NCBI GenBank assembly: GCA_964601125.1
Contig: CAZRKB010000001.1
Span: forward strand, 6,371 to 49,671
Length of the DNA: 43,301 nucleotides
Source: an uncultured Candidatus Saccharibacteria bacterium
GTDB lineage: Bacteria > Patescibacteriota > Minisyncoccia > Phycocordibacterales > WO2-35-19
Direction: 5' to 3'
Part shown: positions 2,552 to 43,183 of the stretch, one piece after another
How positions within the stretch are numbered: position 1 is the first letter of the stretch
How the letters are laid out: each line of letters opens with the position of its first letter
Made by a program: the position numbers and the translations under genes
Notes under the pieces: generated by a model
The model's database searches: none
What the model saw: the letters and a program-made list of their open reading frames with translations, nothing else
What the model was told of the DNA's origin: nothing

Positions 2552-3088
2552 TTAAGCCTTTTTGAACGGAAAATGCAAAGCTTTCAAAAATTCTTTTGTA
2601 GCTTCAGGAGTTTTTAGGTTAGTAACGAGTGTAACAGCAAAACCAAACACGTCTTTCAAATCTTCATCGCCGGTTTCAGGAAATACAGTGTGTTCTTTTA
2701 TCGAAAGAGTGTAATTGCCCATTTTGTCTACCGCTGAAATAGAGATACCTCTAAAGTCTTTGGTTCGAGGCAGAGCAATATTTATAAGCCTGTCCAAAAA
2801 GCTCCACATTCTCTCCCCTCTCAGAGTAACCTGCACACCAACTATGTCACCCTCTCTTGATTTAAACGTAGCTATTGATTTCTTTGCACCTCTCCTGATC
2901 GGTTTTTGGCCAGTGATTTTAGCAAGTCGGTCCTCAACTATATCGATTTTCTTTTTGTCAGAAAAAGAGCCCACACCAGAACTCACCACAACCTTTAAAA
3001 TTTTTGGTGCTTGCATGACATTTTTCAACCCAAGCTTATCTTTGAGTTCTTTAAATGCGTCTTTTGTTTTTTCTTTTAAAGTTTTCAT
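2552..3088 (-). CDS. rplE: 50S ribosomal protein L5
   Basis: 178 aa; follows rplX in canonical spc order; L5-like N-terminus (KLGLKNVMQAPKILKVVVSSGVG). Confidence 0.93.
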   Translation of the reverse strand: MKTLKEKTKDAFKELKDKLGLKNVMQAPKILKVVVSSGVGSFSDKKKIDIVEDRLAKITGQKPIRRGAKKSIATFKSREGDIVGVQVTLRGERMWSFLDRLINIALPRTKDFRGISISAVDKMGNYTLSIKEHTVFPETGDEDLKDVFGFAVTLVTNLKTPEATKEFLKALHFPFKKA

Positions 3089-3095
3089 GTTTTAA

Positions 3096-3122
3096 GTTCG
3101 TAGTAATTCGTTAATATATTCG
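3096..3122 (-). repeat. family 2 AT-rich ACGAA-box element, copy 1 (interrupted by a GC hairpin)
   Basis: Minus strand CGAATATATTAACGAATTACTACGAAC just upstream of rplE; its first boxes lie beyond the hairpin, overlapping the rplX stop (AATACGAAGTAAC). Confidence 0.7.
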
Positions 3123-3156
3123 CCCGCCCGTACCGAATCGGTACGATTCGGGCGGG
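3123..3156 (-). repeat. GC-rich compound hairpin inserted between rplX and rplE
   Basis: Outer 8-bp stem CCCGCCCG/CGGGCGGG enclosing the palindrome GTACCGAATCGGTAC; abuts the rplX stop codon; splits family 2 copy 1. Confidence 0.75.
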
Positions 3157-3387
3157 TTACTTCGTATTTTTCTTAACATTCGAAACGTGTATAGGTGTAG
3201 CCTGCTCTATCACCTTACCTTTCTCGCCTTGCTTTCTAGGCTTTTTGTGAAGCTTCTTTTTATTTACACCATCAACCAACACCAGAGAAAGTTTGGGAAA
3301 TGCCTTAACAACAGCACCACTCTTGCCTTTGTCTTTACCGGTTATCACCGTCACTTTATCTCCTTTTTTTATTTTCATCTTAATCAT
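3157..3387 (-). CDS. rplX: 50S ribosomal protein L24 (short form)
   Basis: KOW motif IKKGDKVTVITGKDKGKSG; lies between rplN and rplE; the start could instead be the ATG at 3378. Confidence 0.9.
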   Translation of the reverse strand: MIKMKIKKGDKVTVITGKDKGKSGAVVKAFPKLSLVLVDGVNKKKLHKKPRKQGEKGKVIEQATPIHVSNVKKNTK

Positions 3388-3425
3388 GTTCGTAGCTATT
3401 CGTTAATATATTCGTTAATTCGTAT
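3388..3425 (-). repeat. family 2 ACGAA-box element, copy 2
   Basis: Minus strand ATACGAATTAACGAATATATTAACGAATAGCTACGAAC fills the whole rplN-rplX spacer. Confidence 0.75.
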
Positions 3426-3803
3426 TTATATCACTTCCGGCGCCAAAGAAACTATAGCCTGGTGCCCCGCTTCAGCTATCTCCCTTGGGATAGGTCCGAA
3501 AATGCGCCCCGCCCTTGGAACAAGCTCACCTTTTTTACGATCAACTACGATAACCGCATTTTCATCAAACCTAATATAAGAACCATCCTTCCTCCTTAGA
3601 GGAGACTTCTGTCTTACCACCAAACCAAGAAGAACAGCTTTTTTCTTTATTTCTTTTCTGGGTTCCGCTTTTTGTACCGAAAAGTTTACAAGCTCTCCAA
3701 CCTCTGCATATCGCTTTTTTGAGCTTCCAAGCACCTTGAAAACTCGGCCAATCTTGGCTCCTGAATTGTCTGCTATTTTTACTATACTTCTTGGTTGGAT
3801 CAT
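3426..3803 (-). CDS. rplN: 50S ribosomal protein L14
   Basis: ORF trimmed to MIQPRSIVKIADNSGAK, the canonical L14 N-terminus; ends SLAPEVI. Confidence 0.95.
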   Translation of the reverse strand: MIQPRSIVKIADNSGAKIGRVFKVLGSSKKRYAEVGELVNFSVQKAEPRKEIKKKAVLLGLVVRQKSPLRRKDGSYIRFDENAVIVVDRKKGELVPRAGRIFGPIPREIAEAGHQAIVSLAPEVI

Positions 3804-5862: not shown

Positions 5863-5875
5863 ATTTTTTCTAATT

Positions 5876-5912
5876 TTCGTATCAATTCTTTAATTTATTC
5901 GTTATTTCGTAT
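5876..5912 (-). repeat. family 2 ACGAA-box element, copy 3
   Basis: Minus strand ATACGAAATAACGAATAAATTAAAGAATTGATACGAA directly after the rpsS stop; same 8/12/11-nt box spacing as copy 2. Confidence 0.75.
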
Positions 5913-6257
5913 TTATTTTTTAGAAGTTTCGGCTGTAGACTTGGCCGCCTTAGCAGCTGCTATTTCAGCCTCTTTTTTCTTAGCCTCAAGCTCCTTCTGC
6001 ATTTTACCTCCGTGTTTTATAAATTTCTTGGTTGGAGAAAATTCGCCAAGCCTGTGACCCACCATATCTTCAGAAGCTAAAACTTCGATATGATCTCTGC
6101 CATTATGAACACCAAAAGTGAAACCGACCATCTCCGGAGAAATGACACAAGCCCTAGACCACGTCTTAATAACCCCAGTCTCATGAGGTTTTTTGCCGAG
6201 CACTTTTTTAAGCACTCTTTCGTCTACGTATGGTCCTTTTTTGAGCGATCTTGACAT
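5913..6257 (-). CDS. rpsS: 30S ribosomal protein S19 with ~20-aa Lys/Ala-rich C-terminal extension
   Basis: [12 protein letters not shown] and FTFGVHNGR motifs; 114 aa, versus about 92 for the canonical protein (from memory). Confidence 0.95.
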
Positions 6258-8962: not shown

Positions 8963-10642
8963 TTACATCTTTTCTGGTACTTTGATACCCAAAAGATGGA
9001 GACCATTTTTGAGAATGTGATAGACCGACTCAGTGAGTGCCACCTTGTAAGAAGAAGTTGGGTCTTCTTCACTTATTATTTTGTTATTGCCATAAAAACT
9101 ATTGAAAGCTGAGGCGAGTTCGGTGAGATAGGTGACCAAATGATGAGGTGCGTACTCCCGCCCCGCTCGCTCGACAATTTCCGGAAAACGATAGAGCATT
9201 CTTTCGATTTCTGTTGTTCCCCAATTTTCCAAGGTTAGTCCTTGGAAGTTTTTTGTGTTATTAATTATCGCTTTTGAAAGCACCGATTTGGCTCGGACTG
9301 CTGTGTATTGTAAGTATGGCCCAGAGTCGCCTTCAAAAGAAATTGATTGGTCAAAATCAAAAATAATGTCCCCTCCGATCGCCTGCCTGAGTACCGAATA
9401 CTTTATCGCCCCTATAGCTACCGCTTCAGCTATTTTTAATTTTTCTTCTTCGTTATAATCCCGGTCCTTCAATTTTTCTGAAACTAGAGTTTGCACATCA
9501 TCAATCAATTGTTCCCCGGTTATAACATTGCCTTTACGCGAAGACATTTTGCCGGAAGGAAGTTTCAACATCCCATGAGAAAGGTGCTCGGTATTTTCTG
9601 CTACTTCCGGATTTATTTGTCCCAATGCTTTTAGCACAACTCTAAAATACCCATCCTGCTCGTTTGCAGTAATTATTATTGATTTGTCAGACTTATATTT
9701 ATCAAACTTGCGCAAAGCGTGAGCGATATCTTTAGCTTCATACAAAGGTAAGCCTTCATTATTCAAAAAAACTCTTGTGTGTAGTTTTTGGTCATACTTT
9801 TCTCCCCTGAAAATAACTGCGCCGTCGCTTTCTTCAAAAACCCCTTTTTGTAAAAATTCTTTTACTATTTTTTGAGCATCATCCGAAACTTCGCTTTCAA
9901 AAAAGTAAAAATCAAATTTGGTATTAAGTTTTTTATACAGCTCTTCAAAATGCGCGAGCGACACCTCTCTGCCCCATTCATAAATTTTCAAAAGTTCCTG
10001 ATCGCTCTTTTCATAAATTTTTTTGTTTATTTCCTTTATTTCTTCTTGGGCTGCTGGATCGTCCTCATACGCATTTGAGCCACTCGCATACGCCTTACCT
10101 ATATACTCAACCTTTTCTGCCAAATTTCCTTCCATTATTCCTCCCTCCTTTTTTATACCCCAAACAGCTTTGGCAATATGAAGTCCAACATCTCCTTGGT
10201 AAGTATTCCTTTTAACTTCTGCGCCACTCCATTCAAAAATGTTTGAGATCGATTGACCGATCACATTGCCCATCAAGTGCCCGATGTGAAGCGGTTTCAA
10301 TACATTTGTGTTTGTGTATTCTATTATTATCTTCTTGTTATCAAGCAAATCTGTTTTCCCAAAATTTTCTTTTTTCTTATTTATTTCGATAATCGAATCA
10401 GCGAAAAAATGTTTCGAGAGGAAAATATTTATGAATCTCTCATTCGCCAATTCTATCTTTTCGATTTCAGGCAATTTATTTTTCTCTAATTTTTCTATCA
10501 CCCCCTCTCCCCCTCTTATGCTAAGCGGGGGTAAAATCAAAGCAAAATCTCCCTTTTCAATTTCTTTTGGATGCACCAAAACCACACTCTCCATCTCAAG
10601 TGTCTCCTTTACCCACTGTTCAATTTTTTCTTTTATTGGCAT
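8963..10642 (-). CDS. argS: arginine--tRNA ligase
   Basis: 559 aa; class I HIGH motif PLHIGHLMGNVIG; C-terminal anticodon-binding region; contains family 1 repeat copy J in frame. Confidence 0.93.
   Translation of the reverse strand: MPIKEKIEQWVKETLEMESVVLVHPKEIEKGDFALILPPLSIRGGEGVIEKLEKNKLPEIEKIELANERFINIFLSKHFFADSIIEINKKKENFGKTDLLDNKKIIIEYTNTNVLKPLHIGHLMGNVIGQSISNIFEWSGAEVKRNTYQGDVGLHIAKAVWGIKKEGGIMEGNLAEKVEYIGKAYASGSNAYEDDPAAQEEIKEINKKIYEKSDQELLKIYEWGREVSLAHFEELYKKLNTKFDFYFFESEVSDDAQKIVKEFLQKGVFEESDGAVIFRGEKYDQKLHTRVFLNNEGLPLYEAKDIAHALRKFDKYKSDKSIIITANEQDGYFRVVLKALGQINPEVAENTEHLSHGMLKLPSGKMSSRKGNVITGEQLIDDVQTLVSEKLKDRDYNEEEKLKIAEAVAIGAIKYSVLRQAIGGDIIFDFDQSISFEGDSGPYLQYTAVRAKSVLSKAIINNTKNFQGLTLENWGTTEIERMLYRFPEIVERAGREYAPHHLVTYLTELASAFNSFYGNNKIISEEDPTSSYKVALTESVYHILKNGLHLLGIKVPEKM
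10498..10531 (-). repeat. family 1 element (hairpin + G-rich tail), copy J, inside argS
   Basis: Minus strand CCCCCGCTTAGCATAAGAGGGGG (9 bp plus 1 mismatch) followed by AGAGGGGGTGA; encodes PPLSIRGGEGV. Confidence 0.7.
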
Positions 10643-11756: not shown

Positions 11757-12973
11757 TTTCGTAAAATTTTATCAATTTTTCTAGCAATGTTTACAAAATC
11801 TTTTTCTTTTTTGCCCCGAGTGGTTTCTGCTGCGCTCCCGAGCCTTATGCCAGAAGGATCCATCGGACTCCTGGTTTCGTTTGGAATTGTGTTTTTGTTT
11901 ACGATGATTCCATTTTTCTCTAATCTATCACTCGCGTCCTTACCCGAAATTCCTTTTCCTTCCATCCAAGTATCAACTAAAATTAAGTGGCTGTCTGTCC
12001 CACCAGAAACTACGCGCCAACCAAGTTTTTTTAACTCATCCGACAGAGCCTTGGCGTTCTTTATAACCTGCTTCGCATATTTTTGGAATGCAGGAGTTTT
12101 AGCTTCTTTGAGAGCCACTGCCACAGCGGCTATCTGGTTTAAGTGTGGCCCACCCTGTAACCCCGGGAAAACAGCTTTGTCTATAAGTTCTGAAATACTT
12201 TTATCTTCCCCTTTTGCATTTTTAATAGTTACATCATTACGTGAAAATATAATGGCGGAGCGAGGACCGCGAAGAGTTTTATGCACTGTAGTAGTTACCA
12301 CATGAGCACAAGGAAAAGGAGATGGATAAGCCTTGCCCGCAACAAGCCCCGCAAAATGAGACATGTCTACCATGAGTATCGCCCCGCAACTGTCGGCTAT
12401 CTCTCTAAATTTTTTGAAATCAACAATACGAGGGTAGGCAGTGAATCCGGCCACGATTATGTTTGGCTTTTCCCTTAAAGCGATTTCCTTTATTTTCTCA
12501 TAATCAATCTGTTCTGTATCTTTGTTCACCCCATAAGGCACCTGCTGCCAAAATTTACCGGTAGCTGAAACTTTGTGCCCATGAGTGAGGTGCCCACCAT
12601 GGTCAAGAGACATGCCCATAATCTTGCCTTGTCCTGAGCTTGTCGAAGGGCCACCCTTTGGTACAAGGCCCAGATAAACAGCCAAGTTGGCAGGACTACC
12701 TGAGAGAGGTTGTACATTAACACTCCACTTTGAAGTGAGGTTGAAAAGTTTAATAGCTCTTTCTTTACAAAGATTTTCAATTTTGTCTACAAAGGTTTGC
12801 CCTCCATAATATCTTTTGCCAGGATACCCTTCAGCATATTTATTTGTAAGTTCGCTCCCAAGCGCCTCGAGCACATCTTTAGAAACATAGTTTTCAGAAG
12901 CAATCAGGTTTATAACGCTTTTCTGTCTCTTCTTCTCTGCATCTATTAGCTTTTTTATTTGTTGGTCTTTCAT
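11753..12973 (-). CDS. glyA: serine hydroxymethyltransferase
   Basis: 406 aa; SLDHGGHLTHG and PLP-lysine region TTTVHKTLRGPR. Confidence 0.95.
   Translation of the reverse strand: MKDQQIKKLIDAEKKRQKSVINLIASENYVSKDVLEALGSELTNKYAEGYPGKRYYGGQTFVDKIENLCKERAIKLFNLTSKWSVNVQPLSGSPANLAVYLGLVPKGGPSTSSGQGKIMGMSLDHGGHLTHGHKVSATGKFWQQVPYGVNKDTEQIDYEKIKEIALREKPNIIVAGFTAYPRIVDFKKFREIADSCGAILMVDMSHFAGLVAGKAYPSPFPCAHVVTTTVHKTLRGPRSAIIFSRNDVTIKNAKGEDKSISELIDKAVFPGLQGGPHLNQIAAVAVALKEAKTPAFQKYAKQVIKNAKALSDELKKLGWRVVSGGTDSHLILVDTWMEGKGISGKDASDRLEKNGIIVNKNTIPNETRSPMDPSGIRLGSAAETTRGKKEKDFVNIARKIDKILRK
12626..12652 (-). repeat. 27-nt G+C-rich in-frame segment in glyA (family 4 candidate)
   Basis: Minus strand GGCCCTTCGACAAGCTCAGGACAAGGC encodes GPSTSSGQG within the otherwise conserved L-x-P-G-D-x-(I/V)-(M/L)-G-M region; resembles the nested segment of copy H. 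Confidence 0.45.
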
Positions 12974-13985: not shown

Positions 13986-13986
13986 A

Positions 13987-14023
13987 CCTCACCCCTAACC
14001 CCTCTCCTAGATTCAGGAGAGGG
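13987..14023 (-). repeat. family 1 element, copy A
   Basis: Minus strand CCCTCTCC-TGAATCTA-GGAGAGGG-GTTAGGGGTGAGG; begins 2 nt after the thyA stop. Confidence 0.85.
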
Positions 14024-17293: not shown

Positions 17294-17372
17294 ACGCATA
17301 ATTTCTTGCTAGAAACTTGCGCGGGCCCGCCTCGCACCGTCGTGCTCCGGCCGGCGGAAGTGCGGTTCAACG
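17294..17372 (-). other. 79-nt GC-rich structured insert at the 3' end of rplK
   Basis: G+C-rich block (GCGGGCCCGCCTCGCACCGTCGTGCTCCGGCCGGCGGAAGTGCGG) plus AT hairpin TTTCT-TGCT-AGAAA, bracketed by an 11-nt direct repeat. Confidence 0.6.
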
Positions 17373-17786
17373 CACTTCCACCCCCATGCTCCTGCACTGA
17401 CCGGCGATGATTTTGACGGCTGCTTCGAGGTCGTTTGCGTTAAGATCAACCATCTTCTTTTCTGCGATTTCTTCAAGTTGCTTTCTTGTAATGGTACCCA
17501 CTTTTTGACTGGGAGCCTTGCCAGAACCTTTTTCGATACCCAAAGCTTTCATGATGAGACTTGATGCCGGAGGAGTTTTGAGAACAAAATCAAAAGTGCG
17601 ATCTTCATACACGCTTATATCAGCAGGCACCAACCCATCCATTTCCCTTGTGGCGTCATTAAACTGCTTGACGAATTCACCAATATTAATACCAGCCGGA
17701 CCCAAAGCCGTACCAACAGGAGGCGCAGGGGTTGCCTTGCCGGCCGCGATCACTAATTTTATTTTTTTTGATACTTTTTTTGCCAT
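17367..17786 (-). CDS. rplK: 50S ribosomal protein L11
   Basis: 139 aa; [22 protein letters not shown] motif; follows nusG. Confidence 0.95.
17373..17383. repeat. direct repeat CACTTCCACCC (right copy, inside the rplK C-terminal codons)
   Basis: Exact 11-mer match to 17283-17293. Confidence 0.8.
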
Positions 17787-19571: not shown

Positions 19572-20432
19572 TTATATATTAGAGACCGAGAGTTCTAATA
19601 AATTTTTAAAAAGACAAGCGACCGTAACCGGCCCCACACCCCCTGGTACTGGAGTTATGGCTCTAACCAAAGGTTCAACTTCAGCAAAATCGACATCGCC
19701 CACAAAAAAAGATTTACTTTCTTGCCCCCCTCTTAGAGTAAGAGGGGGGTTGGGGGGTGATACTCGATTGATCCCCACATCAATAATAACCTGATTTTTA
19801 TTTGTAAAATCTTTTGTTACTAAGCCCACCTTACCAACAGCAGAAATTAAAATATCGCTATTTTTAGATATTTCCGGCACATTTTTTGTATTAATGTCAC
19901 ACCTTTCAACTTGGGCTTTTATTCTTTCCAACTCATCAGCGATCGGCTTCCCTGCAAGCAACGATTGACCCAAAACTGCAACTTTTTTGCCCTCAATTTC
20001 AATTTTATAAAAATCTAAGATAGCCAAAACCGCGCGAGCCGTAGCGGGTGTTACAAGAACCCTGCCCTCTTCTTCTAGCTCAGTAAGACCATCCGCGTCT
20101 TTGCCTTTTTTTATATAACTTAAAATTTTCTGCGCATTTAAATGCTGGGGTAGTGGCAATTGAATAATTATACCGTGGACACCCCTATCTTCGTTTAAGT
20201 TTTCTATTTCTTTTATCAAAATCTCTTCCTCTACACCCTCTTCAAATCTTTTATGTACCGCATTGGCTCCGATTTCATCAGCAAATTTAATTTTATTTTT
20301 TATATAAAGATTTGAATCAGGCCTATCGCCGACTTGCACAATAGCCAAAACAGGCTTTTGTTCCAGCTTTTTCATTCTCTCTATGAGTCTCTTCTTTATT
20401 TCCTCCCGCACGGGGGTTCCGTATAAAATCAT
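19572..20432 (-). CDS. folD: bifunctional methylene-THF dehydrogenase/methenyl-THF cyclohydrolase
   Basis: 286 aa; IIDVGINR and ITPVPGGVGPVTVA motifs; family 1 repeat copy B in frame. Confidence 0.93.
   Translation of the reverse strand: MILYGTPVREEIKKRLIERMKKLEQKPVLAIVQVGDRPDSNLYIKNKIKFADEIGANAVHKRFEEGVEEEILIKEIENLNEDRGVHGIIIQLPLPQHLNAQKILSYIKKGKDADGLTELEEEGRVLVTPATARAVLAILDFYKIEIEGKKVAVLGQSLLAGKPIADELERIKAQVERCDINTKNVPEISKNSDILISAVGKVGLVTKDFTNKNQVIIDVGINRVSPPNPPLTLRGGQESKSFFVGDVDFAEVEPLVRAITPVPGGVGPVTVACLFKNLLELSVSNI
19725..19760 (+). repeat. family 1 element, copy B, inside folD (antisense to the gene)
   Basis: CCCCCCTCT-TAGAGTA-AGAGGGGGG-TTGGGGGGTGA; 36 nt, i.e. 12 codons, encoding SPPNPPLTLRGG. 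Confidence 0.85.
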
Positions 20433-21042: not shown

Positions 21043-21429
21043 TTAGGTAGCTTTTTTACCATCTTCACCAAGCACTCTCTCTATGTCTTGGACTATGGAC
21101 TCAAGACTTTCATCTGATTTAATGACATAACCCACGGCTCCCATCGCCATCACGTCGCTAATCTTTTTTACGCTTGAAAGATTAGACGAAACCAGCACCG
21201 GTACTTTTGGAAATTCGTCTGAATCTTGTATTTTTTTAAGAAAAGACGCTCCATCGAGCTTTGGCATCATAAGATCAAGTACGACTAGATCCGGTTTTTC
21301 ATTTTTAAGTTTATCCAAACCAACTTCCCCATCTTCTGCGTGTACCAAAGAGTATTTTTCTTTAGGCAAAGCAGCTTCTAGTGTCTTTGCAAAAAATTGA
21401 TCGTCGTCTATCACCAAAATCTTTTTCAT
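21043..21429 (-). CDS. single-domain response regulator (CheY-like receiver)
   Basis: 128 aa; KILVIDDD, PDLVVLDLMMPKLDG; no output domain. Confidence 0.88.
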   Translation of the reverse strand: MKKILVIDDDQFFAKTLEAALPKEKYSLVHAEDGEVGLDKLKNEKPDLVVLDLMMPKLDGASFLKKIQDSDEFPKVPVLVSSNLSSVKKISDVMAMGAVGYVIKSDESLESIVQDIERVLGEDGKKAT

Positions 21430-21432
21430 AAA

Positions 21433-21479
21433 AATACGAAATAACGAATAAATTAACGAATGGTTTCGTTGCTTCGTAT
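21433..21479 (+). repeat. family 2 ACGAA-box element, copy 4 (opposite orientation to the flanking genes, partly palindromic)
   Basis: Plus strand ATACGAAATAACGAATAAATTAACGAAT matches copy 3 at 27 of 28 nt, then the inverted part GGTTTCGTTGCTTCGTAT; kinase-regulator spacer. Confidence 0.75.
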
Positions 21480-29848: not shown

Positions 29849-29920
29849 GGTGACTATCCGGATTCGAACCGGAGATAAAGGCTCCACAAACCTCTGTGTT
29901 ACCACTACACCATAGTCACC
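29849..29920 (-). tRNA. tRNA-His (GTG) with genome-encoded G-1
   Basis: Hand-folded cloverleaf: acceptor GTGACTA/TAGTCAC, extra 5' G opposite discriminator C, anticodon loop TTGTGGA, T arm TCCGG-TTCGAAT-CCGGA; no encoded CCA. Confidence 0.88.
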
Positions 29921-30722: not shown

Positions 30723-31196
30723 TTACTCTTTTTTCAATTCAGCCTTTTGTTCTGTGTTTTCGAGAGAAGTTTCTTCTTCCCCCCTCTCCTCTTGCAAGGA
30801 GAGGGGTTGGGGGTGAGGTAGTTCCTCTGGCACCTCTCTTACATTTCTCATCGCTCTCTTGATTTCTTTGGCTGCCTTTTTCCTTATGTGGTATAGCTTA
30901 GCCCTGCGAACTTTTGAGCGCTTTACTACTTCTATTTTTTCTATGCTTGGAGAATATATAGGGAAAATCCTCTCCACCCCCACACCAGAAGTAACCTTTC
31001 TTAATGTAAATGTTCCACCTGCTTCCCTGCCATGCTTTACAGCCAAACAAAGACCCTCGAAGGCCTGCAATCTGGTTTTTGGTTTGCCGGTCTTTTTATC
31101 CTTTTCGATAATTTTTTGGGTAACCTTAACAGTATCCCCGGATCTTATATCCAAATTTTTCCTTTCTTCTATTTTTACTGGTGAAATGATTTTCAT
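30723..31196 (-). CDS. rplS: 50S ribosomal protein L19 with ~40-aa C-terminal extension
   Basis: RLQAFEGLCLAV, GVGVERIFPIYSP and RRAKLYHIRKK match L19; ATG 1 nt after the rplB stop; the tail contains repeat copy C. Confidence 0.9.
   Translation of the reverse strand: MKIISPVKIEERKNLDIRSGDTVKVTQKIIEKDKKTGKPKTRLQAFEGLCLAVKHGREAGGTFTLRKVTSGVGVERIFPIYSPSIEKIEVVKRSKVRRAKLYHIRKKAAKEIKRAMRNVREVPEELPHPQPLSLQEERGEEETSLENTEQKAELKKE
30779..30818 (+). repeat. family 1 element, copy C, inside the rplS 3' extension
   Basis: CCCCTCTCC-TCTTGCAA-GGAGAGGGG-TTGGGGGTGAGG; encodes LPHPQPLSLQEERGE on the gene strand. Confidence 0.88.
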
Positions 31197-31197
31197 A

Positions 31198-32043
31198 TTA
31201 TTTCTTAGCAACTCTCCTTCTGCTTACAATATATTTATCAGAATACTTCTTTGATCGACGTGTTTTCTGACCTTTACCTGTTGGTCTACCCCAAAGAGAA
31301 ACCGCCCTCTTTCTGCCTCTACCTTGACGGCCTTCGCCTCCACCATGTGGATGATCAACTGGGTTCATAGCTGTACCCCTAACAGTAGGGCGTATACCCT
31401 TCCATCGCGATCTACCGGCCTTTCCATAATTTTCAAGTCTTTTTTCTTCATTTGACACCTCACCTATGCTTGCAAAACAGCCCTCTCGCACTTTTCTTAC
31501 TTCAGTTGACGGCATCTTCAAGTCAACATAGCCAGCATCCTTTGCGACAACTTGCACGAAGTTGCCAGCAGACCTGGCGATCTTGGCACCCTGATAAGGC
31601 TTGAGTTCTACATTGTAAACAAATGTCCCTACAGGTATCAATTTCAAAGGAAGCCTGTTTCCTTGCTTTATTTCAGCGTTTTCTCCAGTCACAAACTCTT
31701 CTCCAGGCTTTACACCCTTTGGTAATAAAACGTATTTCTTCTCACCATCTCTATAGACAGCGAGACCAATAAAGCCAGTACGGTTTGGATCATATTCAAC
31801 CGAAACTATTTTGTATGGTATACCGATTTTTTTGTAATTAAAATCAACTTCCCTCCAAAGACGTTTGTGTCCGCCCCCTTTGTGTCGCACACTGATCCTG
31901 CCCGATCCGCTTCTACCTACAGCCCTCTTCCTTCCGTGCAAGAGAGACTTTAGAGGCTGATTTCCGGTAAGCACACCCTTATAAAGCACCACGCTCGTGT
32001 GCCTCCTTGATTTGGTTGTTGGTTTGTAAGTTTTGATTGCCAT
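31198..32043 (-). CDS. rplB: 50S ribosomal protein L2
   Basis: 281 aa; GTAMNPVDHPHGGGEGR motif. Confidence 0.97.
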   Translation of the reverse strand: MAIKTYKPTTKSRRHTSVVLYKGVLTGNQPLKSLLHGRKRAVGRSGSGRISVRHKGGGHKRLWREVDFNYKKIGIPYKIVSVEYDPNRTGFIGLAVYRDGEKKYVLLPKGVKPGEEFVTGENAEIKQGNRLPLKLIPVGTFVYNVELKPYQGAKIARSAGNFVQVVAKDAGYVDLKMPSTEVRKVREGCFASIGEVSNEEKRLENYGKAGRSRWKGIRPTVRGTAMNPVDHPHGGGEGRQGRGRKRAVSLWGRPTGKGQKTRRSKKYSDKYIVSRRRVAKK

Positions 32044-35541: not shown

Positions 35542-35585
35542 CCCTCTCCTAAATCCAGGAGAGGGTGCCAATCAGGCGGGTGAGG
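35542..35585 (+). repeat. family 1 element, copy D (variant tail)
   Basis: CCCTCTCC-TAAATCCA-GGAGAGGG-TGCCAATCAGGCGGGTGAGG; 7 nt beyond the stop of the 35592..35891 gene. Confidence 0.8.
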
Positions 35586-35591
35586 TCGAAA

Positions 35592-40663: not shown

Positions 40664-41035
40664 GTGGACGACAACAATAAAGAATTTTTTGCAACTTTCA
40701 GATTCACTCCCGACAAAAACCCGGTGGGAGACGCGGTTGGGCGCAAACTCATACTCGCGATCTTGTTCAGTGTTGCTCGAGAATTTCACTCGAAAGAAAG
40801 AGTTTGGTCAGAACTGAAAGAACGAGCAAGTGTTTTTGGAATAAAGGACGTCCTAGATAAATACGAAGACGTTCTGATTCTCCGTGAGGAGATTGGCTCA
40901 ACTTTGAGCCAAATTGACCAATCACAGCAAACATTTGGAAGATTTTTGGATCTGGCCATCAAGGCTGGCTACGACGTGAAGAACGTGTCTATTGACAGCC
41001 TCCTGGATGAAGGAGGAAAAACAAAGACCACCTGA
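40664..41035 (+). CDS. hypothetical protein in a self-contained cassette (own promoter, SD, GTG start, terminator)
   Basis: 123-aa ORF; AGGAGG 8 nt upstream of the GTG; TTGCAA-17-TATAAT upstream; strong terminator downstream; no motif recognised. Confidence 0.55.
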   Translation: MDDNNKEFFATFRFTPDKNPVGDAVGRKLILAILFSVAREFHSKERVWSELKERASVFGIKDVLDKYEDVLILREEIGSTLSQIDQSQQTFGRFLDLAIKAGYDVKNVSIDSLLDEGGKTKTT

Positions 41036-41048
41036 GGACAAGACCAAC

Positions 41049-41087
41049 CCCCCGACGCGGAAGACGCGTCGGGGGTTTTGATTTTTT
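41049..41087 (+). terminator. rho-independent terminator after the cassette gene
   Basis: 11-bp stem CCCCCGACGCG / CGCGTCGGGGG, loop GAAGA, then TTTTGATTTTTT. Confidence 0.85.
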
Positions 41088-43097: not shown

Positions 43098-43101
43098 GTT
43101 C

Positions 43102-43132
43102 CCCCCTACATCTAGTAGAGGGCCTAGGGTAG
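43102..43132 (+). repeat. family 1 element, copy I1 (degenerate)
   Basis: CCCCCTA-CATCTAG-TAGAGGG (one mismatch) followed by CCTAGGGTAG. Confidence 0.55.
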
Positions 43133-43136
43133 TATT

Positions 43137-43170
43137 TCCCTCTTTTGTTGTAAGAGAGGGATAGGGTGAG
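43137..43170 (+). repeat. family 1 element, copy I2
   Basis: TCCCTCT-loop-AGAGGGA followed by TAGGGTGAG; tandem with I1, 13 nt upstream of the xth ATG. Confidence 0.7.
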
Positions 43171-43183
43171 TTATTATGTGGTC

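Follow-up and report, generated by a model that had tools for sequence, protein, structure and literature searches.

An in-frame copy of a dispersed REP-like palindromic repeat in folD of a Candidate Phyla Radiation bacterium

Repetitive extragenic palindromic sequences (REPs) are hairpins of 20-40 bp, found for the most part no more than 20 bp downstream of open reading frames (ORFs), which can take their stop codon from a REP end (Di Nocera et al. 2013, PMC3733652). A minority of REPs lies wholly inside ORFs, tRNA-synthetase genes included (PMC3733652). The classical case of in-frame insertion is that of the Rickettsia palindromic elements (RPEs; Ogata et al. 2000, as summarised in PMC10969869), of which RPE-4 and RPE-6 have been equated with REPs of the CGTC type (PMC3733652). 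We analysed a stretch of 43,301 nucleotides from a bacterium of the Candidate Phyla Radiation (CPR), hereafter the window, in which a short GC-rich palindrome was found in frame inside the gene folD. The folD segment was probably one copy of a dispersed REP-like palindromic repeat, which would be tolerated and read through as a disordered loop and would have been recurrently gained and lost.

The sole long ORF of the region, at 19572-20432 on the minus strand (286 residues), was identified as folD. It matched the Pfam families PF00763 (THF_DHG_CYH; E = 5.7e-32, 110.8 bits) and PF02882 (THF_DHG_CYH_C; E = 8.5e-46, 155.6 bits), and both domains were above the gathering score. In addition, 26 FolD sequences of the PDB matched at E <= 1.5e-33 (best 3e-45), and residues 2-283 were covered. 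A first-pass annotation of the window had placed an in-frame repeat at 19725-19760 of this gene, and this was borne out. The plus strand reads CCCCCCTCTTAGAGTAAGAGGGGGGTTGGGGGGTGA there and the coding strand reads TCACCCCCCAACCCCCCTCTTACTCTAAGAGGGGGG, which is translated in frame as SPPNPPLTLRGG (residues 225-236). The insert lay in the NAD(P)-binding domain, between DVGINR and VGDVDF...ITPVPGGVGP, and the ORF was intact. The annotated size of exactly 36 nt was right in position and sequence, but its boundary was a matter of choice, since the hairpin covers 19725-19749 and is followed by a conserved tail up to about 19762.

The whole FolD loop was VSPPNPPLTLRGGQESKSFF. It had 20 residues, as had been annotated, against 5-6 in the three PDB FolDs with printed alignments, for example LESGKI (3p2o) and LNDGRI (6ape); about six had been expected. 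The E. coli FolD entries 1b0a and 5o22 aligned over 267 residues versus 277 of the query, which was consistent with a shorter loop. An insertion in a surface loop was thus supported, but the count of 12 extra codons was not, because the loop exceeded the canonical length by about 14-15 codons. Directly 3' of the hairpin, purine/A-rich codons for QESKSF (19707-19724, minus strand) were of uncertain identity. They may belong to the element as its 3' flank, or be what remains of an older loop; the intergenic copies of the repeat have a AAAGAAAAAA flank that resembles this stretch, and hairpin-free relatives retain G-SEK-xK loops at the FolD site. Among CPR FolDs, loop length ranged from 17 to 50 residues.

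An AlphaFold2 model of FolD was built from a 44-sequence alignment and had a mean predicted local distance difference test (pLDDT) score of 91.3 and a predicted template modelling score (pTM) of 0.88. The pLDDT fell below 50 only at residues 121-123, in the linker, and at residues 229-236, in the insert, and both segments were coil. The FolD fold is thereby predicted to be intact despite the insert, which is modelled as unstructured coil. We infer from the open frame conserved in every intragenic copy seen that the copies are translated, and the folD insert would be neutral to the enzyme. Over 5.65 kb that include the element, an independent contig from a different sequencing run (L206) was 99.9% identical, which excluded misassembly and meant that the sequence was real.

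The first-pass annotation had also called the folD segment a copy of a repeat element, which agreed with the census of the window. At least five clear copies of a hairpin-plus-tail unit were present, two of them intergenic and three in frame, in folD, argS and rplS. The pattern CCCTCTN{5,14}AGAGGG matched five times versus 0.02 expected; these five include a degenerate unit at 43138, and copy A (below) falls outside the pattern. The tail GGGGTGAKR occurred eight times versus 0.67 expected. The G+C content of the window was 40%. Each unit was built of a 13-nt C-rich tail, a GC-rich stem of 9-11 bp and a loop of 3-8 nt, about 36-45 nt in total. Two subfamilies were distinguished: S1, (A)TATCACCCCC-YAA-CCCCCTCTTA-loop of 3-TAAGAGGGGG, and S2, (TA)ACCTCACCCCCAA-CCCCTCTCC-loop of 6-8-GGAGAGGGG. 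The differences between S1 and S2 at paired stem positions compensated each other, as read directly from the arms. A covariation analysis of 16 copies with MAFFT and RNAalifold was uninformative, because loop lengths vary between copies and the alignment was mis-registered. Both subfamilies were present in the window and recurred in the loci of the relatives L001 and L005. In the window, L001 and L007, a copy occurred about every 6-8 kb.

The folD copy (copy B, S1, 19725-19762, minus strand) was assigned by sequence, translation, census and fold. Its hairpin covered 19725-19749 and its conserved tail 19750-19762. In mRNA sense it was composed of the C-rich tail UAUCACCCCCCAA, the 11-bp stem CCCCCCUCUUA, a 3-nt loop and then UAAGAGGGGGG. 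The folding energy of the hairpin was -20.5 kcal/mol (z = -3.3) for the mRNA-sense strand and -30.2 kcal/mol (z = -4.6) for its complement. Copy A (S1, 10496-10531, plus strand; sequence, translation and census) lay inside argS (8963-10642, minus strand, 559 residues; PF00750 and PF05746), where the G-rich strand is read as LPPLSIRGGEGVI (residues 37-49). Copy D (S2, 30781-30819, minus strand; sequence and translation) was in frame in the acidic C-terminal tail encoded by rplS (30723-31211, minus strand, 162 residues; PF01245) and is read as LPHPQPLSLQEERGE (residues 131-145). The argS, folD and rplS copies therefore gave three different peptides, in three reading registers and from both strands. 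The S2 loop TAGATGCA was read only in registers where TAG is no codon, and copy D, read in the other register, had a different loop without TAG.

The two intergenic copies were both S2 and were supported by sequence, census and fold. Copy C (13986-14023, plus strand) started 0 nt past the thyA stop codon and ended 13 nt ahead of the next ATG, with a folding energy of -17.4 kcal/mol (z = -3.3). Copy E (35542-35586, minus strand), whose tail was interrupted, started 5 nt past the stop of a DUF5663 gene, upstream of tuf, and folded at -23.8 kcal/mol (z = -3.1). Two degenerate side-by-side copies were assigned with low confidence at the window edge (43101-43174, minus strand); the clearer one, at 43138-43174, consisted of CCCTCTTTTGTTGTAAGAGAGGG and then ATAGGGTGAGTTAT.

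Compared with described systems, the element is a small palindromic repeat of the REP/RPE kind, but by its length and coding it is not a member of the RPE family. Like REPs of the GTAG and CGTC families, it is a GC-rich hairpin with a short loop (stem of 6-13 bp in REPs; stem of 9-11 bp and loop of 3-8 nt here). It also shared with them a dispersed distribution, a position just downstream of ORFs where a stop codon is sometimes supplied or abutted, a minority of copies in frame inside ORFs, some of them at roughly equivalent positions in orthologues, and subfamilies with compensatory stem changes (PMC3733652). However, the element was without a GTAG (or GYAG/GTRG) or CGTC tag. Its unpaired part was the 13-nt tail YTRG-GGGTGAGG on the G strand, and its 5' flank on the other strand was CYAR, where REPs have GTAG or CGTC. 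Its host, a CPR bacterium, was a further difference. The tail GGGGTGAG fitted the GGGGWSAS motif of the terminal inverted repeats at 'TIRYT' genes, which resemble REP-associated tyrosine transposase (RAYT) genes, and this was taken as a lead only.

The RPEs resembled the element as selfish-looking palindromic repeats that lie in frame in unrelated housekeeping genes of a reduced genome and are compatible with the protein fold (PMC10969869). The annotated likeness to RPEs was therefore kept in the sense that the element works like them, as the intergenic, argS and rplS copies indicated, but family membership was not. The RPEs (RPE-1 to RPE-10) measure about 100-150 bp, and RPE-1, with about 150 bp, codes for a conserved peptide of some 45 residues (PMC10969869), whereas the element was about 36-45 nt long and its reading frame and strand varied between genes. 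It was set apart from RPEs by their described length and coding, and also by its missing CGTC tag, which bears on RPE-4 and RPE-6. Miniature inverted-repeat transposable elements are similar in being non-autonomous, dispersed and sometimes intragenic. However, the element was far shorter, consisted of a single hairpin and not of terminal inverted repeats around a core, and gave no target-site duplication when filled and empty sites were compared. Small dispersed repeats of Nostoc and other cyanobacteria are reportedly mobile-looking, 21-27 nt long or slightly longer, have hairpin potential and no associated gene, and occur nested in other sequences and in distant genomes alike. As so described, they resemble the element in all these respects.

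FolD homologues were examined for the state of the insertion site. The best named homologues belonged to Candidatus Zambryskibacteria and Paceibacterota. Element-like peptides such as TSPPAPLLDAGEG, ISPPNPPLILRGGQ and ITPLAPLKLRGE occupied the FolD loop in about 30 of 120 homologues, and most of the remaining ones had a canonical xxGKL loop. Syntenic loci (VTT - folD - SIMPL - nusG - rplK) were compared as DNA. Among orthologues at about 60-65% identity, the site was empty, or it carried the same element, the other subfamily, half an element or two elements. An empty site in close relatives had been named as a check on the insertion, and such sites were found. The L003 gene (protein P0007), 64% identical, had AATAAAACCTCAAAAATT, read as INKTSKIVGDV, and many other orthologues had xxGKL loops. 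An unrelated loop of the same length without hairpin-forming DNA, which would have spoken against insertion, was not seen; the orthologues had either short loops or hairpin-forming copies of the repeat family.

The filled sites differed among relatives. L001 and L002, from separate sources (JGI and Logan), agreed on an S1 copy at the same codon as in the window. L007 had an S1 copy with a decayed tail. An S2 copy was present in L004, L005 and L009 and was nearly identical to the intergenic copy C of the window; in L004 and L005 it was ACCTCACCCCTAGCCCCTCTCCTAGATGCAGGAGAGGGG. The L009 copy combined the start of an S1 tail with an S2 hairpin, which looked like partial conversion. L006 had two units back to back in opposite orientation. 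The loop of L207 held a full unit, and that of L208 (FolD about 88% identical) held only the 3' arm and the A-rich flank. Thus, the claim of an insertion into folD stood for an in-frame element, but not for one simple event, because gain, loss and replacement were seen across lineages. Element-bearing FolDs had an element-bearing nearest neighbour in 4 of 19 cases (permutation P = 0.35), that is, without phylogenetic clustering, and short-loop FolDs were interspersed among them; these 19 bearers were called by a motif rule that missed about ten others. The clearest evidence came from a second FolD site, in the interdomain linker after KDADGL. The copy of L207 (10355-10395) had its C-rich tail first, the copy of L003 (10349-10392) was in the opposite orientation, and L208 and the window had none. 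The opposite orientations in one linker meant that the insertions were independent.

Other repeats were also observed. Distant CPR FolDs had unrelated perfect hairpins in the DVGIN loop (L013 10709-10745, L045 10694-10730, L016/L017/L019 and L011 9635-9682), such as GAGGTCTCTCCTCG...CGAGGAGAGACCTC, with 14-bp arms and a predicted stem of 16-17 bp, and CCCTCCTTCG...CGGAGGGCAAGC. L013 had a second, similar hairpin unit at about 16439 on the minus strand. Relative to P0010, FolD P0013 had an extra PPLRQGYAGRV within the element-derived loop, which looked like an insertion nested in the hairpin loop. A second, unrelated repeat family, CTCGACACYAATACACRAATGA..CGAATGACACGAAT, was intergenic in L003 (about 12503-12550, past the nusG stop) and in frame in the L209 FolD (ELDTNTQMSTNDTNQ). 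It was likewise in frame in many L19 tails (LDTNTQI..NDTNEE; P0133, P0136, P0152, P0161, P0184, P0212 and others).

The argS and rplS copies were compared with their homologues in the same way. Copy A was internal to the arginyl-tRNA synthetase (ArgRS), since the conserved N-terminus was upstream of it, and relatives had INGPEAEKDF at its position. Copy D was missing from the closest L19 (P0121) and present as TPPNPPLDQGRE in P0182 and P0201. Many L19 orthologues terminated in NLTPTK, NLTPNS or QTSPLAEA, which is the element tail read into the C-terminus. Elsewhere in the N-terminal domain of ArgRS, an (L)RQAQGDLQ insert was seen in scattered relatives (P0250, P0275, P0277, P0278 and P0338), and it probably derives from a further repeat family. 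In P0298 and P0299, the element-bearing N-terminal segment of ArgRS was 74-88% identical to that of the window and the catalytic core only about 55%, which suggests that the sequence around the element is mosaic or has recombined. In L207, rplS was adjoined by an ORF (2882-3556) with a faint LAGLIDADG_3 match and the ribosomal protein operon was split; this hints at further mobile elements in these genomes.

The intergenic copies followed stop codons closely. Where an upstream co-directional ORF was present, the tail started -1 to +8 nt from the stop codon in eight of nine copies. The 3' arm was GGAG-rich and was followed by an A-rich stretch, often with the next ATG 13-22 nt on. These copies were preceded by (A)TAA, the stop codon, and the AAT AAA codons of the GINK motif in folD gave the same ATAA string. 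The dsbD2/cupredoxin and nusG/rplK intergenic sites were filled in some relatives and empty in others. A target-site duplication was not found in the comparison of filled and empty sites (window/L003 versus L001/L005), and a 13-nt spacer was replaced. A reading of the copies as intrinsic terminators was dropped because there was no U-run after the hairpin on either strand. An orientation bias relative to transcription was not claimed either. The raw count was 18 C-first versus 5 G-first, and it shrank to about 11 versus 5 once the possibly orthologous folD copies were collapsed.

An exact scan for GAGAGGGGNTNGGGGTGAGG over one genome per species gave at least 120 loci (L086-L205). The loci listed were from Chloroflexota, Bacteroidota, Cyanobacteria, Planctomycetota, Acidobacteriota, Armatimonadota, Proteobacteria, Nitrospirae and a CPR Nomurabacteria genome, and they included isolate genomes. 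A complementary arm lay 4-8 nt upstream in 122 of 143 among the matches listed, versus 7 of 143 when the downstream side was taken as a control. Viral contigs, scanned likewise, gave at least 120 loci (L211-L330), with a complementary arm in 120 of 136 among the matches listed; the share with the arm was thus 85-88% over the two scans. Plasmids of cyanobacteria, Azospirillum, Cupriavidus and others also had the element (matches H1-H25). Cyanobacteria were among the richest carriers of the S2 hairpin-plus-tail element among the matches listed. Tandem arrays of the S2 element were seen in L128 (five copies in 819 bp), L090 and L187. The cross-phylum form was the S2 hairpin plus tail, nearly unchanged, tCCCCTCTCC-loop-GGAGAGGGG-YTRG-GGGTGAGG. 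Its placement relative to ORFs was left unused, because stop-to-stop ORF calls are unreliable in GC-rich genomes. A sequence of about 40 nt that is constant across phyla made vertical inheritance impossible. It is possible, though we put it forward tentatively and with some doubt, that the element is a horizontally spreading hairpin-plus-tail unit of about 40 nt, almost invariant across phyla and viral contigs, which inserts preferentially next to (A)TAA by widely shared machinery and repeatedly remodels permissive loops of proteins in streamlined CPR genomes. With such spread, a preference for (A)TAA would account for copies at stop codons as well as those at the AAT-AAA codons of the GINK motif.

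A partner enzyme and a known family were searched for. No dominant gene family recurred beside the element in an all-against-all BLASTP over the 120 cross-phylum loci listed. A jackhmmer search found no IS200/RAYT-like ORF in the element-bearing loci searched, which were genome fragments only, RAYTs being single-copy; the seed was an IS200 TnpA sequence, and the only match was in the unrelated locus L030. Small genes of DUF559, a Vsr-like endonuclease, lay between two inverted copies at 33-54 nt in two Bacteroidota loci (L131 434-894 and L132 6924-7408), which resembled a REPtron with a different enzyme. DUF559 genes also lay beside one copy in L159 (2-347) and L188 (72-441), and one plasmid match was inside a 4.8-kb gene annotated DUF559. 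DUF559 was not adopted as the partner enzyme, since the case was weak and the element was present at only 1-3 of 80 DUF559 loci from viral contigs. At gathering thresholds, Rfam gave only a tRNA in the window and no family for the element, and at permissive thresholds only sub-threshold generic hairpin matches were obtained around copy D. A literature search with 18-mers of the element gave no match, and 9-mers gave human or irrelevant papers only. Among the papers searched, none paired CPR names with REP or MITE terms.

Based on these results, we propose that the repeat is spread through a Zambryskibacteria-like CPR genome, with a copy roughly every 6-8 kb. Its copies would survive only where they are harmless, which may be right after stop codons between co-directional genes or, within genes, in disordered loops or tails where the frame stays open. 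The folD copy would be read by the ribosome as a Pro/Gly-rich, solvent-exposed loop with the enzyme fold unharmed. This loop may be a recurrent landing or retention site that was occupied, vacated, cut down to half an element, and occupied again or converted by different subfamilies, and the spread would have occurred by trans-acting copying (transposition, or else gene conversion/template switching). The frame and the strand in which the element is read differ from gene to gene, and the L004/L005 folD copy was almost identical to the intergenic copy C, which pointed to a DNA repeat and not a protein motif. Several observations weighed against this explanation. The window and L001 folD copies were identical at 33 of 36 nt (92%), although the rest of the gene was 65% identical and the synonymous sites were saturated (45% at third codon positions). 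All lineages had exactly the same 5' junction in folD (AATAAR / ATATCAC or ACCTCAC). This identity and the junction fit one old insertion held by selection or conversion equally well. In argS and rplS, the element replaced a variable segment of similar length and was not a plain addition. In addition, a mobilising enzyme, a target-site duplication and a terminal inverted repeat were not found in the loci examined, so mobility was inferred only from the patchiness. The constancy of copies and junction could be due to the copying process itself, if only competent copies spread and conversion overwrites those already in place, to nucleotide-level selection, or to site-preferential insertion.

A single ancient insertion, kept for a hairpin function in folD mRNA or DNA (a translational pause between structural segments, a site for an RNase or for processing, or a site of protein binding) and lost where loops are short, would accommodate the high copy identity and the constant junction after AAT AAR. 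The hybrid copy of L009 is expected of in-place conversion, and the half element of L208 would be decay by deletion. We consider this history unlikely, however. Most close orthologues were without the hairpin and had the canonical xxGKL loop, so the hairpin was dispensable. The state of the site did not follow the phylogeny, the orientation at the second FolD site differed by lineage as in independent events, and the same sequence was present in intergenic DNA and unrelated genes. These intergenic copies also largely refuted selection of the loop as a Pro/Gly-rich peptide, for example an interaction motif, with an incidental DNA palindrome. In its favour, about 30 of 120 homologues had PPxPPL...RGG/GEG-like peptides in the same loop. 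However, the peptides varied by frame (PPLTLRGG, PLLLQEGE and PLLDAGEG) while the DNA hairpin was kept, argS reads the other strand, and the insert was disordered in the model, which makes such selection very improbable. We give just as little credence to an element that is left untranslated through ribosomal bypassing or removal from the RNA. GC-rich 'byp' hairpins are bypassed in Magnusiomyces mitochondria, and a strong GC-rich hairpin within AT-rich coding sequence would fit such a process. However, bypassing would impose no constraint on the frame, and every intragenic copy seen (two sites of folD, argS, rplS and tens of orthologues) was open, stop-free and frame-preserving, down to the avoidance of an in-frame TAG in the S2 loop and the TAG-free loop in the other register of copy D. 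An artefact, either a chimeric contig or a folD pseudogene, had the unusual GC-rich patch in its favour and nothing else. Its probability was negligible given the match to L206 from another sequencing run, the agreement of L001 and L002, and an intact ORF with both FolD domains.

Other features of the window lay outside these subjects. Direct and inverted repeats rich in ATTCGT/ACGAAT were intergenic at 3094-3137, 3386-3431, 5873-5940 and 21406-21468; they may be operator/promoter-type sites or kin of the CGAAT repeat CTCGACACYAATACACRAATGA..CGAATGACACGAAT. A hairpin with a 14-bp stem and a T-run at 41046-41078, after the ORF at 40664-41035, resembled a classical intrinsic terminator. A tRNA gene was located at 29849-29919 on the minus strand. 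A GC-rich hairpin with a 12-bp stem, GGYGGAAGTGCG...CGCACTTCCRCC, was found at 17353-17382 and also in L004 (7171-7200) and L005 (12958-12987). It was conserved in several relatives, at the rplK 3' end or just past it (L004/L005), and was outside the repeat family.

Three points are added here to the described systems: the same two FolD loops are used recurrently, argS and rplS have companion insertions, and the element shows a pan-bacterial constancy. Even ultra-small, streamlined CPR genomes thus carry dispersed palindromic repeats, which would be written into the housekeeping proteins FolD, ArgRS and L19. Loop and tail residues derived from the repeat would be one reason why CPR proteins vary so oddly in length. 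For annotators, Pro/Gly-rich inserts and endings such as NLTPTK and QTSPLAEA would be read as repeat-derived. The repeated use of two FolD loops would serve as a natural experiment on the positions at which an enzyme tolerates insertion. If the constancy of the element across phyla is biological and undescribed, it would imply a very widespread mobilising or selecting machinery, which could be sought by phylogenetic profiling.

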